From an uncultured bacterium (GTDB taxonomy: Bacteria; Chloroflexota; UBA5177; JANWHV01): a DNA stretch of 64,000 nucleotides. The DNA is taken from NCBI GenBank assembly GCA_963827235.1, contig CAWHAE010000009.1:64001-128000 (forward strand). Direction: 5' to 3'. Made by a program: the position numbers and the translations under genes. Positions 32,167-38,772 of the stretch are shown piece after piece. Position 1 is the stretch's first letter, and the number at the start of each line of letters is the position of its first letter. The notes beneath the pieces were generated by a model. The model saw nothing but the letters and a program-made list of their open reading frames with translations, was not told where the DNA came from and made no database searches.

Positions 32167-32895
32167 ATGCGGATCACCACTCACGGAACCTACCTCACAC
32201 AGCTCACGCGCCTGCCGCGCGTCTTTCCGGTAAACTGCTATCTCGTGCGGGAAGACGACGGATTCACCCTGATCGACGCGGCATTGCCGGGCAGCGCCCC
32301 GGCCATCCGCGCCGCCGCGCGCAAGCACGGACTGCCCATCCGGCGCATCGTGCTCACCCACGCACACATGGATCACGTCGGCTCGCTCGATGCCCTGCAC
32401 GAAGGACTGCCGGAAGCAGAGGTCCTGATCTCGGAGCGCGACTCCCGCATGCTTGCCGGCGACCTGCGGCTCGATCCGGGTGAGTCGCCCGCCAAGCTGC
32501 GCGGTAGCTGGAAGACCTGCACCACGCGCCCAACCGCCTTCCTGAAGCACGGCGACCGCATTGGGTCGCTGCAGGTGCTTGCCGCGCCCGGCCACACGCC
32601 CGGGCACATGGCTTTCTTCGATCCACGCGACGGCACGCTGATCGCCGGTGACGCCTTCCAGACTCGCGCCGGCGTTGCGGTCTCCGGTACCATGCGGCCC
32701 CTGTTCCCGTTCCCGGCCATGGCAACCTGGTCCAAGCCGATCGCGCTCGACAGCGCCATCGCCCTTCGCGCTCTGCAGCCCAAGCGGCTTGCTATCGGCC
32801 ACGGCGAGGTCCTGGAGACGCCCCTGCCTGCCATCGACCGCGCCATCGCCGTTGCCGAGCGCGCCCTGGGAAGGATGGTGCAGCACGGCCGCTAG
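32167..32895 (+). CDS. MBL-fold metallo-hydrolase
   Basis: LTHAHMDHVG, GHTPGH, IAGDA, GHG. Confidence 0.9.
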   Translation: MRITTHGTYLTQLTRLPRVFPVNCYLVREDDGFTLIDAALPGSAPAIRAAARKHGLPIRRIVLTHAHMDHVGSLDALHEGLPEAEVLISERDSRMLAGDLRLDPGESPAKLRGSWKTCTTRPTAFLKHGDRIGSLQVLAAPGHTPGHMAFFDPRDGTLIAGDAFQTRAGVAVSGTMRPLFPFPAMATWSKPIALDSAIALRALQPKRLAIGHGEVLETPLPAIDRAIAVAERALGRMVQHGR

Positions 32896-33505
32896 AGCAG
32901 GCATCGACCATGCCGCAGTGGTGCGCACGGCCTACGCGCTGGTGGATAGCAACGGGCCGCACGCCCTCACCCTGGCCACGCTCGCCGCGGTGCTGGGCGT
33001 GCGCACGCCCTCGCTCTACAACCACATCGACGGCCTGCCCGGTCTGCAGCGCGATCTCGCGCTCATGGGCGCTCGCGACATGGCACGCGCGCTCACTGGC
33101 GCCACGGTCGGGCGCTCGCGGGACGAGGCGGTGAGGGCGCTCGCCGCGGCCTATCGCGACTTCGTGCACGATCATGCCGGGGTCTACGAGATGCTGCTGC
33201 GAGCCGCGCCGGCCGATCGTGCGCCCGATCCCGAGCTGGACGACGCGGAACGCGATCTGGTGAGTATTCCTCTCGCCATCCTCAGCGGCTACGGCTTGCA
33301 CGACGCCGGCGCGCTGCACGCCGTGCGCTGCCTGCGCAGCGTCGTGCACGGCTTCGCTACGCTGGAAGCACGGGGCGGCTTCGGCCTGCCGCTGGACGTG
33401 GAAGAAAGCTTTCGCCGCCTGGTCGACCTCTACATAGCCGCCCTGCAGCCCGACCGGGAGCTGCAGCGGACCGAGGCGGCATGCGAACAGGGAGTGGGCC
33501 GCTGA
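32885..33505 (+). CDS. TetR family regulator with WHG-type C-terminal domain; probable non-canonical ACG start
   Basis: LAAVLGVRTPSLYNH HTH, RSVVHGFATLE; no in-frame ATG before helix 1. Confidence 0.82.
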   Translation, partial: TAARAGIDHAAVVRTAYALVDSNGPHALTLATLAAVLGVRTPSLYNHIDGLPGLQRDLALMGARDMARALTGATVGRSRDEAVRALAAAYRDFVHDHAGVYEMLLRAAPADRAPDPELDDAERDLVSIPLAILSGYGLHDAGALHAVRCLRSVVHGFATLEARGGFGLPLDVEESFRRLVDLYIAALQPDRELQRTEAACEQGVGR

Positions 33506-33536: not shown

Positions 33537-34601
33537 TTGTCGCTAGATACCTACATCCAGGAGATGCCCAAGGTCGAGCTGCACGTGCACCTCGAAGGCT
33601 CTATCCAGCCGGCAACGCTGCTGGCTCTGGCCCAAAAGCACGGCATTGCCCTGCCGGCCGATACCGTCGAGGGCCTCCGGCGCTGGTATACCTTCACCGG
33701 CTTCCCGCATTTCGTCGAGATCTACGTCGCCATTTCCCGTTGCATCACGTCTCCCGACGACGTCGAGACGATTGCACGCGAGTTCCTCGCCGGCCAGGCC
33801 GCTCAGAACGTGCTCTACAGCGAGGCCACGTTCACCGCCTACACGCACTATCAGCTCAACCGCATTCACGTCCGCGATTCGCTGGCCGCCCTGGATCGCG
33901 CCGCGCGTTGGGCCGCCGCGACGCTCGGAATCCGCGTGGGCTGGGTGATCGACATCGCGCGCGAAATGGACGGCGACCGGAGCGTCGAGGTCGCGGACTG
34001 GGCGATCGCCGGGCGGGAACAGGGCGTGGTCGCCCTCGGTCTGGGCGGCTATGAGGTCGGCAACCCGCCCGAAAAGCACGCCAGGGCATTCGCGCGCGCT
34101 CGGGAGGCCGGACTGCCGCGAGTGCCGCACGCCGGCGAAACGGCAGGGCCGGCAAGCATCTGGGGTGCCCTCCGCGCCCTGGATGCCCAGCGCATCGGAC
34201 ACGGCGTCCGCTGCCTCGAAGATCCCGATCTCGTAGCCGAGCTGCGGCGGCGGCAGATCCCGCTCGAAGTGTGCCCGACCAGCAACCTCTGTCTGGGCGT
34301 GGCGCCCGGCATGAAGGAACATCCGCTGCCGCGCCTGCTGGCCGAGGGCCTCTACGTGACGCTGGGCTCCGACGACCCGCCCATGTTCAATACGACGCTG
34401 ACCGGCGAATACCTGGCCGTGGCGCGGGCCTTTGGCTGGGGCGCGGCCGAGCTGGAATCGCTGGTGCGGGCCGGCGCCGGCGCGGCGCTGCTGCCCGACG
34501 GCGAGCGCACGGCACTGCAAAGCCGGGTCGAGCGGGAATTCGATCGAGCTTCGTCCGGCACACCTCGTGTGAGCAGGGCGGCGCTCAACTCACGCGCATG
34601 A
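33537..34601 (+). CDS. add: Adenosine/adenine deaminase
   Basis: PKVELHVHLEGS, HAGE, RIGHG, EVCPTSN, SDDP. Confidence 0.92.
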   Translation: MSLDTYIQEMPKVELHVHLEGSIQPATLLALAQKHGIALPADTVEGLRRWYTFTGFPHFVEIYVAISRCITSPDDVETIAREFLAGQAAQNVLYSEATFTAYTHYQLNRIHVRDSLAALDRAARWAAATLGIRVGWVIDIAREMDGDRSVEVADWAIAGREQGVVALGLGGYEVGNPPEKHARAFARAREAGLPRVPHAGETAGPASIWGALRALDAQRIGHGVRCLEDPDLVAELRRRQIPLEVCPTSNLCLGVAPGMKEHPLPRLLAEGLYVTLGSDDPPMFNTTLTGEYLAVARAFGWGAAELESLVRAGAGAALLPDGERTALQSRVEREFDRASSGTPRVSRAALNSRA

Positions 34602-34648
34602 GCCTGGTTGAGCGGGCGGCAAATCTGCTATAGTTGCTGTAAGCGCGA

Positions 34649-34716
34649 CACTCGTATAAGCTCGAGGATTGGCTCGGCGTTTCTACCGGCGGCCGCAAAC
34701 CGCCTGGCTACGAGGG
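34649..34716 (+). ncRNA. Purine riboswitch aptamer, guanine type
   Basis: P1 CTCGTA/TACGAG; UA junction; L2 with TGG; TTTCTACC J2/3; P3 GGCGG-CCGCAAA-CCGCC; C at the position-74 equivalent; TGn-TATAGT -10 at 34626-34634. Confidence 0.88.
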
Positions 34717-34862
34717 AAGTGCATCTAGGGTTCCGTGCTTCGCGGTTGTGCTCGCTACGCTGTGGCAGTAGCCGCGGGGTGGTCTGGACCGAGCGATGCT
34801 GGCGAGGAGAGGGTTTCTCTTCGCTACACCACGGGGATAAAAGCCCGGATGGCAGGTTCCAC
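34714..34862 (+). ncRNA. ykkC-motif riboswitch aptamer, PRPP-sensing subtype 2b-like
   Basis: GGAAGTG..CTAGGGTTCCG..CTGGACCGAGCG..ACACC..GGGATAAAAGCCCGG..GGCAGGTTCC; P0 pairing present; G (not A) before GTTCC. Confidence 0.82.
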
Positions 34863-34902
34863 TCAAATACTGTGGGACCGCCATCCGGGCTTTGCGTTTT
34901 GT
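34840..34902 (+). terminator. Riboswitch expression-platform terminator overlapping the 3' end of the ykkC aptamer
   Basis: AAAGCCCGGATGGC(A)GGTTCCAC pairs with GTGGGACCGCCATCCGGGCTTT, followed by GCGTTTTGT. Confidence 0.75.
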
Positions 34903-34964
34903 CCGCGACAATACGGCCGAGCGCACGGTAGCTCGCGCGGTAGCAGAAAGGATAAACGGTTCCT

Positions 34965-35966
34965 GTGAACATTTGCCGCTATTTGTCTCGATCTGCCGTT
35001 GTTGCTGTCCTCGTGGGGGCAGCCATGATCACTCCAATCTCCCGGCCAGATGCTCGCGCCGCCTCGACGACCAACGTGTCCATCGCCCTGAACTGGATCA
35101 AGAACGTAGAGTTTGGCGGAATCTGGGCGGCACAGGAAAAGGGCTGGTGGTCGCAGGCCGGCCTGCAGGTCTCCGTGCGCAGTTACGACGACGGCTATCA
35201 GGATCCAGTGCTGCTGGTCGGCGCCGGCAAATACCAGTTCGGCTTCCAGGATGGAGCATCGATCATCCTCGGACGGGCCGCCAAGGTTCCGGTCAAGGCC
35301 ATCTGGGCATCGGGTGAAACGTCCCCCTTCGCGTTCATCACCATGCCGAAGAGCGGCATCAAGTCACCCAAGGACTTCAAGGGCAAGCGCATCGGCTACC
35401 AGAGTCATGAGAAGTACGTGCTCGACGCCATGCTCAGCGCGGTCGGCCTCAAGGAGAGCGACGTGTCACCGGTCGTCGTGCAGTATGATCCCACGGTGCT
35501 CCTGGCAGGCAAGGTCGACGCCTACCTGGCGTTCCTGACCAACGAGCCGATCGAGCTCGCGCAGAAGTATCACGTCAACGTGAACATCATTCCGGCCAGC
35601 GCCTACGGGTACGATTTCTACAGCGACGTGCTCTTCACCACGGACAGCACGATCAAGTCCAATCCGGCGCTGGTGCAGAAGGTCGTCTCCATCATGGACA
35701 GGGGCTGGAAATACGCCCTGGCACATCCGGATGAGATTGCCAAGGTCGTGGTGCCCAAGCTCGACCCAACCGACTCGGTCTCGCAGCAGATGGCAGAGAT
35801 GAAGGCGCTGGCCAAGCTCGCCTCCCGGCCGGACGCGCCGACGGGCTCCATGACCGCCGCCCGCTGGCAAGCAGGCATCGATCTGCTGCTCAAGTACAAG
35901 CAGATCACGGCGCCCGTGGCCGCCTCCGACGTCTACACCACGCAGTTCCTCGGCTCGACGCACTGA
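34965..35966 (+). CDS. ABC substrate-binding protein, SsuA/THI5/NMT1 family
   Basis: Signal peptide; LNWIKNVEFGGIWAAQEKGWW..GL, IKSPKDFKGKRIG, NEP. Confidence 0.88.
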   Translation: MNICRYLSRSAVVAVLVGAAMITPISRPDARAASTTNVSIALNWIKNVEFGGIWAAQEKGWWSQAGLQVSVRSYDDGYQDPVLLVGAGKYQFGFQDGASIILGRAAKVPVKAIWASGETSPFAFITMPKSGIKSPKDFKGKRIGYQSHEKYVLDAMLSAVGLKESDVSPVVVQYDPTVLLAGKVDAYLAFLTNEPIELAQKYHVNVNIIPASAYGYDFYSDVLFTTDSTIKSNPALVQKVVSIMDRGWKYALAHPDEIAKVVVPKLDPTDSVSQQMAEMKALAKLASRPDAPTGSMTAARWQAGIDLLLKYKQITAPVAASDVYTTQFLGSTH

Positions 35967-35967
35967 G

Positions 35968-36822
35968 ATGGGTGCTATATCCTGCCAGGGCGTGCAGTTC
36001 AGTTACCCTAACGGCGTACGTGCCCTGCGGGATATCAATCTCACGGTCGCCGCCGGACAATTCGTATCCTTGATCGGCCCCTCCGGCTGCGGCAAGTCCA
36101 CCTTGCTCCGCATCGTCGCCGATCTGCTGGAGCCGGAGGCCGGCCGGATCACGATCGCCGGCATCTCGCCGCGTGCCGCTCGCACCTCGCGCAAGATCGG
36201 CATGGTCTTCCAGGAGCCGGCCCTGCTCAAGTGGCGCCGCGCCTCCCGAAACGTCGAGCTCCCCCTCGAGCTGGGGGGGAAGCTCGACCGGGCCGGCCGC
36301 ACGCGCGCCATCGAGGTGCTCGAGCGGGTCGGCCTGGCGGATTGCGCCGGCAGGCTGCCCGCGCAGCTCTCCGGCGGGCAGCGCCAGCGCGTCGCCCTCG
36401 CCCGCGCGCTCTTGCAGGAGCCCGAAGTGCTGCTCATGGACGAGCCGTTCGGCGCTCTCGACCAGATCACGCGCGACGAGATGAATGCCGCCCTCCTGCA
36501 GGTCTGGGAGATGACGGGCATCACCGTGCTCTTCGTCACCCACAGCATCTCCGAGGCAGTCTACCTCAGCGACCTGGTAGCGGTATTCACGCCCAGGCCG
36601 GGCAATCTCTACCACACGATTCCGGTGCCGCTTCCACGTCCGCGCGACCCCTCTGTGCGGCGGACCGCGCAGTTCTTCAGGCTGGAAACGGAAGTGCTCT
36701 CTGCGCTGGATGGCAGACCGGTCGAATCCGACGACTGGACGCGCAGCAAGACGCTCAAGTCCGGTGAGCCGCTGGCGGCGCCCGGCTCGTTTGAACGGAG
36801 CCTGAACGATGCATCAAACTGA
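35968..36822 (+). CDS. ABC ATP-binding protein (TauB/SsuB type)
   Basis: GPSGCGKST, LSGGQRQR, LMDEPFGALD, VTHSISEAVYLSD. Confidence 0.92.
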   Translation: MGAISCQGVQFSYPNGVRALRDINLTVAAGQFVSLIGPSGCGKSTLLRIVADLLEPEAGRITIAGISPRAARTSRKIGMVFQEPALLKWRRASRNVELPLELGGKLDRAGRTRAIEVLERVGLADCAGRLPAQLSGGQRQRVALARALLQEPEVLLMDEPFGALDQITRDEMNAALLQVWEMTGITVLFVTHSISEAVYLSDLVAVFTPRPGNLYHTIPVPLPRPRDPSVRRTAQFFRLETEVLSALDGRPVESDDWTRSKTLKSGEPLAAPGSFERSLNDASN

Positions 36823-37654
36823 ACGAGCGATGGAAGTCATAGGCGCTAGGCCGCGAGCTTCGCGACAGGCCAGGCAGCACTCCGTACACTGGAAGCTCGT
36901 CGCCGACCGCGTTCTGGACGTGCTGCTGCCCGTGCTGGCCGTGGGCGCCGTGCTGGCATTCTGGCAGTTCTACGTGATCTGGCAGAAGGTGCCGCCCTTT
37001 CTCTTCCCACGACTCGACGACACCCTCAACAGCCTGTGGACGAACCGGGGCGATCTTGCCTCGAGCCTGTTGACCACCCTCGAGGAAGCCGGCATGGGCT
37101 TCCTGTTTGCCAACCTGCTGGCCATCGCAGGCGCCACCATCTTCGTGCACTCACGCCTGGCGGAGCGCTCCATGTTTCCGCTGGCGGTGCTCATCCAGAC
37201 CATCCCGATCATCGTCTGGTCGCCGATTCTGGTGATCATCATGCCCAACGACAGCATCTGGCCGCAGGTCGTCATTTCCTTCCTGATCACCTTCTTCCCT
37301 GCCCTCGTCAACATGACCCAGGGCCTGCGCATGGTCGAACCGCTGCACCTGGACCTCTTCCGTGTGCTCAACGCGTCCCAGTTGCAGGTCTTTCTCAAAC
37401 TGCGCTGGCCGGCCTCCATCCCCTCGCTCCTGGCCTCGCTGCGCATCACCAGCACGCTCAGCCTGGTCGGCGCCATCGTGGGCGATTATGTGGCCGGAGG
37501 CGGCAACAACCTGGGTAACCTGCTCAACCGCGCCCACCAGTCCTACGACACTGCTCTCATGATGGCCGTCGTCCTGGTGGCCACGATGACCGGCATCGTC
37601 ATCTTCCTGCTCATGTCCTCGGTGGAGCGAGTAGTGCTGAGCCGGCGCGGCTAG
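36809..37654 (+). CDS. ABC permease (TauC/SsuC type)
   Basis: FFPALVNMTQGL, FLKLRWPASIP, LVGAIVGDY. Confidence 0.9.
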   Translation: MHQTERAMEVIGARPRASRQARQHSVHWKLVADRVLDVLLPVLAVGAVLAFWQFYVIWQKVPPFLFPRLDDTLNSLWTNRGDLASSLLTTLEEAGMGFLFANLLAIAGATIFVHSRLAERSMFPLAVLIQTIPIIVWSPILVIIMPNDSIWPQVVISFLITFFPALVNMTQGLRMVEPLHLDLFRVLNASQLQVFLKLRWPASIPSLLASLRITSTLSLVGAIVGDYVAGGGNNLGNLLNRAHQSYDTALMMAVVLVATMTGIVIFLLMSSVERVVLSRRG

Positions 37655-37791: not shown

Positions 37792-38772
37792 ATGCGACCC
37801 TCAATAGAGTGGCTGGGACATGATTCATTCCGCCTCGGCGACGGGCACACCGTCGTCTACGTCGACCCCTGGAAGCTCAAGGGTAGCCAGCCAAAGGCAG
37901 ATCTCATCCTCATCACGCACGACCATTTCGACCACTTCTCCGCCGACGACATTGCCAACCTGACGAAGGACGGCACGGTCGTGGTCGCGCCGCCGCCCGT
38001 GGCGAAGCAGCTTACCGGCGACGTGCGTAGCGTGCGTCCCTATGAGACGCTGGTTGTCGCCGGCTTGTCTGTCGAGACGGTTCCCGCTTACAACATCGAC
38101 AAGTTCCGCGAGCCGGGTAAGCCGTTCCATCCCAAAGAGGCCGGCTTCGTGGGCTACATCATCACCCTCGGCGGCACGCGCGTCTACCATGCCGGCGACA
38201 GCGACCATACACCGGAAATGGACAAGGTCAGCTGCGACATCGCGCTGGTGCCGGTGAGCGGCACGTACGTGATGACGGCCCCCGAAGCAGCCGCGGCCGT
38301 CAACTCCTTCAGGCCGTCGCTGGCCATCCCCATGCACTACGCCGATATTGTCGGCTCGCTTGGCGACGCCGAGGAGTTCAAGAAGCTCGCCCAGGTTCCG
38401 GTCGAGATTCTGGAGCTCGGTGTAGCTCAGGGCGCGAACCAGGGGAGGCTGCGCGCCGCGGGCCCGATGCGGTCCGCGACCGTGTTCCGTTCCGCGTCCG
38501 CCGCTCCGCACGGTCACGAGGGAACGAGGATCTCGTTCCATCCCCGGATCTGCCAGGCGCGCACCACGCCGTTCACCACGAACGGGTCTCCCGTGGCGAA
38601 TTCCTCGGCAGCCTCCCGGCTGCTGAAGATGGCCATCGCGCCCTCCTCCTGTGGATTGGCAAACGTGCCGACCATCAGCAGCTCGCCCCGTGCCTGGAAC
38701 TCGTCGATGCGGGCGCGGTGGGCAGCAAACTGCGCGGGCGCCTTCGCGGCGACGTCCTCGGCGGACTCGTAG
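37792..38772 (+). CDS. MBL-fold hydrolase (UlaG/YtkL-like); recognisable domain ends near 38415
   Basis: WLGHDSF, ITHDHFDH, YHAGDS, IPMHY; remaining ~115 codons look like read-through. Confidence 0.8.
   Translation: MRPSIEWLGHDSFRLGDGHTVVYVDPWKLKGSQPKADLILITHDHFDHFSADDIANLTKDGTVVVAPPPVAKQLTGDVRSVRPYETLVVAGLSVETVPAYNIDKFREPGKPFHPKEAGFVGYIITLGGTRVYHAGDSDHTPEMDKVSCDIALVPVSGTYVMTAPEAAAAVNSFRPSLAIPMHYADIVGSLGDAEEFKKLAQVPVEILELGVAQGANQGRLRAAGPMRSATVFRSASAAPHGHEGTRISFHPRICQARTTPFTTNGSPVANSSAASRLLKMAIAPSSCGLANVPTISSSPRAWNSSMRARWAANCAGAFAATSSADS

Follow-up and report, generated by a model that had tools for sequence, protein, structure and literature searches.

A predicted tandem guanine–PRPP riboswitch upstream of an ABC importer operon in an uncultured member of the Chloroflexota

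Introduction

Riboswitches that join a guanine aptamer to an aptamer for phosphoribosyl pyrophosphate (PRPP) have been described from Firmicutes, and the Bacillus megaterium codA leader (Sherlock et al. 2018, eLife 7:e33908; PMC5912903) illustrates their design: the guanine aptamer stands first, 5–7 nucleotides (nt) lie between the two P1 stems, the second, ykkC-type aptamer carries conserved 5′ and 3′ extensions, and one terminator is shared. Here we describe a leader with the same order, spacing, extensions and shared terminator in the genome of an uncultured Chloroflexota bacterium, at positions 34651–34901 of a 64,000-nt stretch of DNA (hereafter the window; positions 64,001–128,000 of contig CAWHAE010000009.1, assembly GCA_963827235.1), in front of an operon for an ATP-binding cassette (ABC) importer. 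It differs from the codA tandem in its phylum, in a G+C content of 60%, in a 33-nt extension of the ykkC P1 hairpin, in a G at position 73 of the guanine aptamer and in its genes, which encode an NMT1-type importer rather than a cytosine deaminase or purine biosynthesis.

In the published gate, output is lost only if guanine is present and PRPP absent; termination approaches zero when both ligands are high, and PRPP therefore overrides guanine (PMC5912903). In the tandem of Thermoanaerobacter mathranii, which provides a PRPP aptamer structure (PDB 6CK5; Knappenberger et al. 2018, eLife 7:e36381; PMC6031431), the aptamer ends form an extra helix, P0, that is mutually exclusive with guanine P1, and gate logic may depend on the balance of the two. 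Very few bases separate the ykkC subtypes: position 49 is a pyrimidine in subtype 2 and A in guanidine-I aptamers; G96, which pairs with C75, is G in more than 97% of PRPP aptamers and not G in those for guanosine tetraphosphate (ppGpp); and C77 and G104 contact the ribose in PRPP aptamers (PMC6031431). The 2018 description counts 257 RNAs of subtype 2b, all in Firmicutes and 127 of them tandem (PMC5912903). In our literature search no published account of this tandem from Chloroflexota came up; the Stockholm alignments of that paper, which lay outside the search, might list such sequences.

Results

The leader at 34651–34901 is very probably a tandem guanine–PRPP riboswitch of the Firmicute kind, predicted from sequence to control read-through into the three-gene ABC importer operon at 34965–37654. 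Its parts, in window coordinates, are:

34626–34634, + strand: candidate extended −10 promoter TGnTATAGT, picked out by eye, about 17 nt 5′ of guanine P1, kept in the congener G001
34651–34714, + strand: guanine-type purine aptamer (Rfam RF00167; helices from sequence and centroid fold)
34711–34718, + strand: P0 5′ strand and its extension, sharing four bases (34711–34714) with the end of the guanine P1 3′ strand
34720–34856, + strand: core of the putative PRPP-type (subtype 2b) ykkC aptamer (RF00442, the purpose-built model R1 and marker bases)
34840–34901, + strand: predicted intrinsic terminator, present in the minimum free energy (MFE) and centroid folds and kept in G001
34857–34864, + strand: P0 3′ strand and its extension (UUCC-A-CUC), also within the terminator 5′ arm

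The first-pass annotation, made from the letters alone, had proposed a complete purine aptamer next to a ykkC aptamer, and covariance models now recover both. RF00167 (Purine) matches 34632–34730 (+) over its full length (model positions 1–102) at 56.4 bits against a cut-off of 37 (E = 5e-9 in the 601-nt region); at Rfam curated thresholds it was the sole match in the 64-kb window, leaving the ykkC half unreported. A permissive scan of 34500–35100 added a full-model match to RF00442 (Guanidine-I) at 34714–34853 (+), with 53.3 bits (E = 1.1e-8 in the region), and returned no meaningful family besides these two. The ykkC match has 33 extra nt in its P1 hairpin, the long insertion remarked on at first pass. 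No PRPP-named family turned up in the Rfam scans, whose library may not hold one.

The guanine aptamer is made of P1 (34651–34656/34709–34714), P2 (34660–34678) and P3 (34686–34707). In the RF00167 alignment the ligand-contacting bases U22, U47 and U51 agree with the consensus (UAUAA, GUUUCUACC and G-C-U 5′ of P1), and the equivalent of C74, at 34708, is C and not the U of adenine types. We take this numbering to be that of the xpt structure literature. It agrees with PMC2018637. The position-73 equivalent (34707) is G, not A; position 73 as a specificity switch was considered and set aside, since natural G73 guanine aptamers are documented (PMC2018637). Upstream of the aptamer, the candidate −10 element and its retention in G001 suggest that the leader has its own promoter, with a predicted transcript start; in class relatives TGGTA(G/C)AAT elements occupy the same place, and a consensus scan of 34400–35100 reported no promoter.

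For the second half we built a comparator from described-type tandems. A three-motif pattern scan of a species-representative genome collection gave 116 loci, by title nearly all Bacillota, with five labelled Chloroflexia, Chloroflexi or Chloroflexota. Of the 116, three (L054, L079 and L112) were chance matches without aptamers, and L052 had no recognisable upstream purine aptamer. From these, 56 non-redundant Firmicute tandem PRPP aptamers of 110–132 nt were aligned, after longer ones, near-duplicates, Chloroflexota rows and the atypical L080 had been dropped, and the covariance model R1 was built on them. R1 matches the window at 34709–34867 with 81.3 bits (E ~1e-22), scoring Firmicute tandems at 94–120 bits and Chloroflexota relatives at 63–104 bits. 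Over 100 R1-aligned sequences including the window, an alignment that leans towards R1 by having been fitted to it, 97.9% of the cells in ykkC P1, P1a, P2 and P3 are paired, 11 of the 18 core pairs change on both sides, and none of 500 shuffles reaches the covariation score. In L080, a Bacillota locus 5′ of an ABC ATPase, both the 3′ tail and the 5′ end of the ykkC aptamer are atypical and the R1 score is 63 bits; it may represent another subtype.

Base by base, the window groups with PRPP aptamers on every sequence criterion, carrying each marker of the subtype (position 49, C75, C77, G96, G104 and P0) as the T. mathranii aptamer does, with its C49-type pyrimidine, C75/C77 in ACACC, G96, G104 and a P0 exclusive with guanine P1 (PMC6031431). 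The core comprises P1, P1a/b, P2 (34800–34826), ACACC (34826–34830) and P3 (34834–34846), and the insert adds an extended hairpin at 34738–34779 (stem 34738–34746/34771–34779 in the centroid fold). The pyrimidine marker is a C at 34794, in GAGCG and not GAGAG. The G96 equivalent is the G at 34848, the second base after the P3 CCC (CCC-G-G); that column is G in all 56 Firmicute tandem aptamers, and the first-pass reading of a G at the PRPP/ppGpp-discriminating position is borne out. The AGG tail follows at 34854–34856, one base closer to G96 than in T. mathranii.

The two aptamers abut as originally noted: 6 nt (34715–34720) separate the guanine P1 3′ strand from the ykkC P1 5′ strand, inside the published range, and the P0 5′ strand reuses guanine P1 bases. 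Because MAFFT with RNAalifold missed P0 and P1a in R1, and because some rows of the model-guided alignment were out of register along the 5′ strand of P0, this helix was tested by duplex energies on ungapped ends and not by column counts. Own P0 ends of the 100 aligned aptamers pair at −7.9 kcal/mol on average, against −3.8 for shuffled tails, and across 61 distinct end combinations own partners reach −7.1 against −4.9 for foreign ones. The pairing co-varies across lineages (GUGAAA/UUUCAC, GGAAA/UUUCU, GAGAA/UUCUC, GGGAA/UUCC), and its overlap with guanine P1 is conserved throughout the 100 aptamers of the alignment, whether tandem or singlet. The P0 of the window reads GGAA/UUCC and contains a bulged A, where Thermoanaerobacter loci (L049) have a perfect GUGAAA/UUUCAC, and the duplex 34711–34718/34857–34864 comes to −7.6 kcal/mol against a shuffled mean of −4.1.

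Both aptamers share one terminator, whose 22-bp stem (34840–34862/34872–34893; −42.7 kcal/mol alone) would compete with the ykkC 3′ end as the first reading held, its 5′ arm taking in the P3 3′ strand and the whole ykkC 3′ tail. The P0 3′ tail and the P3 3′ strand thus being the terminator 5′ arm, the platform is laid out as an ON type and the wiring is as published, with a weaker P0 and a stronger terminator than in AT-rich examples. The 266-nt leader (34640–34905) folds better than all 200 of its shuffles (z = −4.8).

Against G001, the region 34590–34975 has a mean column identity of 90% and shows no change at any core base; the substitutions present are either in loops or compensatory (in P2 a G-C becomes A-U, in the insert hairpin an A-U becomes G-C), and the flanks diverge. 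Sequences matching the leader also appear in RNA libraries, drawn from 24 sequencing runs that each contained only 5–9% of the sampled words, four of which were compared with the window. Contigs from the three RNA libraries X3, X4 and X13 cover 34651–34835 at 90–95% identity, one X4 piece being identical over 34651–34735, and show the same insert-hairpin changes as G001. These contigs were filtered, so that the empty stretches (34500–34593, 34872–35336 and the terminator 3′ arm) carry no meaning. Two contigs end in letters that we take to be sequencing adapters, and the inserts are therefore short. As the libraries can contain DNA, the filtered contigs give a weak hint that the relatives' leaders are present as RNA.

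In the window's own genome (G000) these are the sole purine and the sole ykkC aptamer. With the leader as BLAST query, 14 of 41 relatives (counting G000 itself) gave a match; apart from G000 these fall in family f3 (9 of 12), the window's own genus (1 of 4), f2 (1 of 4) and f7 (2 of 2). Rfam placed purine and ykkC aptamers side by side in 10 of these 14 loci. The remaining four are L011, with ykkC alone; L012, with purine alone at that threshold and a ykkC half with very long inserts; and L010 (G007) and L013 (G010), class relatives with a purine-type aptamer alone, no ykkC partner and a best match to the 2dG-II model at 46.1 and 50.6 bits, short of the 60 that this model requires. R1 was searched against 151 sampled Chloroflexota genomes under stricter filters that lose long-insert variants, and 13 gave a match, 8 of them from f3, where 10 had been sampled; its 19 matches divide into 10 tandems, 6 singlet PRPP-type aptamers, 2 guanidine-I-like aptamers and 1 variant before an EamA transporter. 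The denominators of both searches and the homologue scan described below include the unpublished genomes G018 and G060, which were non- or weak-matching only. Four public-scan loci (L045, L046, L087 and L109) are identical to the same-class tandem loci L004, L003, L005 and L009, and L076, titled Proteobacteria, is identical to L015, which we take as a label error. The lineage is thus unusual, as first claimed, when set against the all-Firmicute tally of the 2018 description (PMC5912903, in excerpt), but with R1 matches in 8 of 10 f3 genomes the tandem is no one-off.

The genes behind these tandems vary by lineage. In class relatives they are purL-like; elsewhere in Chloroflexota they encode nucleobase permeases, either NCS2 (L012, L014 and L188) or NCS1 (L042 and L189). 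Among 39 Firmicute-type loci (a count that drew on 54 of 87 computed downstream open reading frames), the first gene encodes a xanthine/uracil permease in 15 and a phosphoribosyltransferase in 7 and is purE in 5 and purL-like in 4, with one each of purK, purD, a PnrA-like binding protein, an amidohydrolase and an ABC ATPase, and three without a Pfam match.

Several variants turned up beside the tandems. L012 (G036) and L014 (G024), from another Chloroflexota class, are tandems before xanthine/uracil permeases in which AT-rich insertions enlarge both the P1 hairpin (by about 30 nt for L014 and about 200 nt for L012) and P2 (by about 100 nt), giving aptamers of about 220 nt in L014 and 320 nt in L012. 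Singlet PRPP-type aptamers (85–104 bits on R1, no purine aptamer) stand directly before His_Phos_1 genes of the histidine phosphatase superfamily, with products of about 213 amino acids, at L011/L180, L179, L181, L184, L185 and probably L182, in the same-class genomes G012, G016, G015, G013, G008 and G011; a ribosome-binding site lies close behind their 3′ tail and a conserved GC-rich hairpin just 5′ of the aptamer, and this association was not met in the excerpts of the 2018 papers. L190 (G143), of the same phylum, holds a clear guanidine-I aptamer (84.3 bits on RF00442) before an NMT1-like binding protein. L191 (G053), a divergent variant of ykkC that scores 50.8 bits with RF00442 and 42 bits with R1, precedes an EamA transporter, a setting that resembles the published context of orphan subtype 2d.

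The operon behind the window's leader and the gene before it are as follows:

34965–35966, + strand: first operon gene, ThiY/NMT1/THI5-type substrate-binding protein with a signal-like N-terminus (Pfam NMT1, 2.9e-51)
35968–36822, + strand: ABC transporter ATPase (Pfam ABC_tran, 2.6e-35)
36809–37654, + strand: ABC transporter permease (Pfam BPD_transp_1, 9.7e-24)
33537–34601, + strand: adenosine deaminase, context only, ending 50 nt 5′ of guanine P1 (TIGR01430, 288 bits against a cut-off of 216.6; Pfam A_deaminase)

The binding-protein gene has an AAAGGA ribosome-binding site and a GTG start, both kept in G001. The solved chains nearest to the protein are 4nmy (E = 4.7e-24) and 3ix1 (E = 5.4e-16), the latter a ThiY that binds formylaminopyrimidine, sulfonate binders being much weaker; the best NCBIfam models for the ATPase are taurine, sulfonate and nitrate ATPases, all under their cut-offs. 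Two genes for metallo-beta-lactamase-fold hydrolases and one for a TetR-family regulator flank the deaminase and importer block (32167–33505 and 37792–38772); the hydrolase gene at 37792–38772 begins 137 nt past the permease and may share its transcript.

Tandem and NMT1-type ABC system were seen together only in G000 and G001. In the congener G003 a 70%-identical system and a gene for a pyrimidine-nucleoside phosphorylase stand back to back. A riboswitch scan upstream of binding-protein homologues covered 17 loci, 16 from relatives and one a paralogue in G000; homologues 38–70% identical in relatives had no purine, ykkC, thiamine pyrophosphate (TPP) or flavin mononucleotide (FMN) aptamer at E ≤ 0.001, and the sole riboswitch in the scan was an adenosylcobalamin (AdoCbl) element 5′ of the G000 paralogue. 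The locus of that paralogue, which is 67% identical to the window's binding protein, is 21371–22493 of contig C3 (1871–2994 of L178). The element (RF01482, 53.2 bits against a cut-off of 50) reaches the paralogue's start codon with its 3′ end. The gene is an orphan, followed by genes for a sigma-70 region 4 protein and a GFO/IDH/MocA oxidoreductase and by no ABC ATPase or permease. Its product could bind a B12-related base or precursor.

Discussion

We read the leader as a genuine, conserved tandem guanine–PRPP riboswitch, to judge by its sequence, in a phylum and before a gene set outside the original description. Ligand binding, terminator function, gate logic and cargo are all predictions here, modelled on the published systems. 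PRPP binding would lock P0 and P3; locked in this way, they would withhold the terminator 5′ arm and unzip guanine P1, and the operon would be transcribed. Without PRPP, guanine would lock guanine P1, P0 could not form, the terminator would fold and transcription would stop. The operon would then be made when PRPP is available and be shut only if guanine is plentiful and PRPP is not. The first-pass annotation had this the other way round ('ON with PRPP, overridden by guanine'), the reverse of the published gate, in which PRPP prevails (PMC5912903).

A number of observations weigh against the tandem guanine–PRPP reading. The ykkC half falls under the Rfam Guanidine-I cut-off of 63 bits, and the 33-nt insert puts its R1 score below all but 3 of the 100 aligned sequences. 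A subtype 2c (nucleoside diphosphate) ligand is set apart only by the likeness to Firmicute tandems. The bulged A interrupts P0, and 8 of 200 shuffles were equally stable. The U-tract after the hairpin is broken (UUUGCGUUUUG), reaching 34901, and the consensus scan of 34400–35100 reported no terminator, the hairpin's 9-nt loop lying outside the 3–8 range of that scan; the terminator was therefore judged by folding, and the −10 element by eye. In the Bacillus subtilis xpt aptamer, A73G abolished 2-aminopurine binding (PMC2018637). Three congeners (G002–G004) have an approximately 70%-identical transporter without a riboswitch, from which it follows that the association of riboswitch and importer is young and narrow, and the cargo of the transporter (a purine base, a related heteroaromatic base or a nucleoside) is assigned entirely by prediction.

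These points bear on different alternatives. We consider it unlikely that a genuine tandem follows a logic other than IMPLY here, with guanine dominant (as the first-pass annotation had it) or with a graded ratio meter at another set point in this GC-rich version. Such a shift would fit the broken P0 of only −7.6 kcal/mol and a terminator of −42.7 kcal/mol that already forms in the ligand-free MFE fold. However, thermodynamic folds say little about co-transcriptional decisions, and in overlap geometry, spacing and tail sequence the leader matches the Firmicute gates, among which one has been measured as IMPLY-like (PMC5912903).

It is improbable that the first aptamer has shifted to xanthine, hypoxanthine, 8-oxoguanine or 2′-deoxyguanosine through G73 and an altered P3 base. 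All relatives in the window's class have G73 (GGCUA for GACUA) together with extra unpaired bases at the foot of P3, the xpt A73G result points the same way, and L010 and L013 fit the 2dG-II model best, although under its cut-off. Against a shift, none of U22, U47, U51 and C74 departs from the consensus, some Firmicute tandems (L024 and L113) have G73 too, and position 73 is only about 90% conserved, the natural G73 aptamer of Listeria monocytogenes pbuG being functional (PMC2018637).

Another ykkC ligand for the second aptamer, whether ppGpp (2a), nucleoside diphosphates (2c), the 2d ligand or guanidine, would suit the NMT1/TauA-like ABC system downstream. Guanidine-I riboswitches precede NitT/TauT-type ABC transporters, and the guanidine-I aptamer L190 stands before NMT1/TauA-like ABC genes in the same phylum. 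The window also shares the overall ykkC fold with Guanidine-I, the sole Rfam model to match this half, and the subtypes lie only very few bases apart (PMC6031431). We nevertheless hold another ligand to be very improbable. The guanidine controls L138, L190 and L197, at 68–84 bits on RF00442, carry GAGAG and ACACGG where the window has GAGCG, with C in place of the marker A, and ACACC; the window lies below the family's cut-off and has P0-forming 5′ and 3′ extensions. On R1 it reaches 81 bits, against 49.6 for guanidine-I L138 (83.9 bits on RF00442) and 42–50 for the ppGpp-like L145 and L146, which are without the G, guanidine-like, ppGpp-like and 2d-like controls together spanning 42–50. The G at the G96 equivalent is absent from ppGpp aptamers (PMC6031431), and the second aptamer has the very same fusion to a guanine aptamer that PRPP tandems show. 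The guanine-type and PRPP-type (here 2b) identities proposed at first pass are both upheld by the covariance-model matches, the controls and the marker bases.

A decaying relic that no longer regulates is barely credible, for although three of four congeners are without the riboswitch, the genome has no other purine or ykkC aptamer and the insert is unusual, the core bases are all kept against G001 while the flanks diverge, substitutions sit in loops or are compensatory, and the insert is itself a helix with compensatory changes.

With the tandem guanine–PRPP reading retained, what the importer carries may be approached through its relatives. Because salvage of a base consumes PRPP, an importer of bases is an ordinary target for a guanine–PRPP gate. 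The NMT1 motif (xanthine/urate) riboswitch (Yu and Breaker 2020, RNA 26:960; PMC7373994) is likewise a purine-sensing RNA before NMT1/THI5-like, tauA-like ABC genes, near adenosine/guanine deaminase genes, but has an unrelated fold and is an OFF switch with a single input. ThiY (PDB 3ix1) and the Chloroflexi RibXY, a ThiXYZ-like system under FMN riboswitch control (Sun et al. 2013; PMC3766115), share the fold family of the binding protein and take flat heteroaromatic cargoes; the window's protein is distant from them (E = 5e-16 to 3ix1) and would be under guanine/PRPP control. We offer as a speculative and rather doubtful proposal that the operon encodes an unrecognised ThiY/NMT1-type importer for a purine or purine-like base, and that the C3 paralogue may deliver a cobamide lower-ligand base (for example benzimidazole or a purine) to the same permease by docking on it, so that one membrane unit would serve two binding proteins, each under a different riboswitch.

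Knowledge of the guanine–PRPP class itself is unchanged by this locus. What it adds is reach: the two-input gate extends beyond the phylum of its description, and tandem and singlet PRPP-type aptamers are established in Chloroflexota. Default Rfam annotation shows the guanine half alone, by which such leaders would be mis-annotated as plain OFF guanine switches. The GC-rich version, with its weaker P0 and very strong terminator, is a natural test of whether the relative strength of P0 and guanine P1 sets gate logic. The leader also gives a functional lead to an uncharacterised branch of NMT1/ThiY-type ABC systems, in which uptake of a purine or related base may be tied to PRPP availability.

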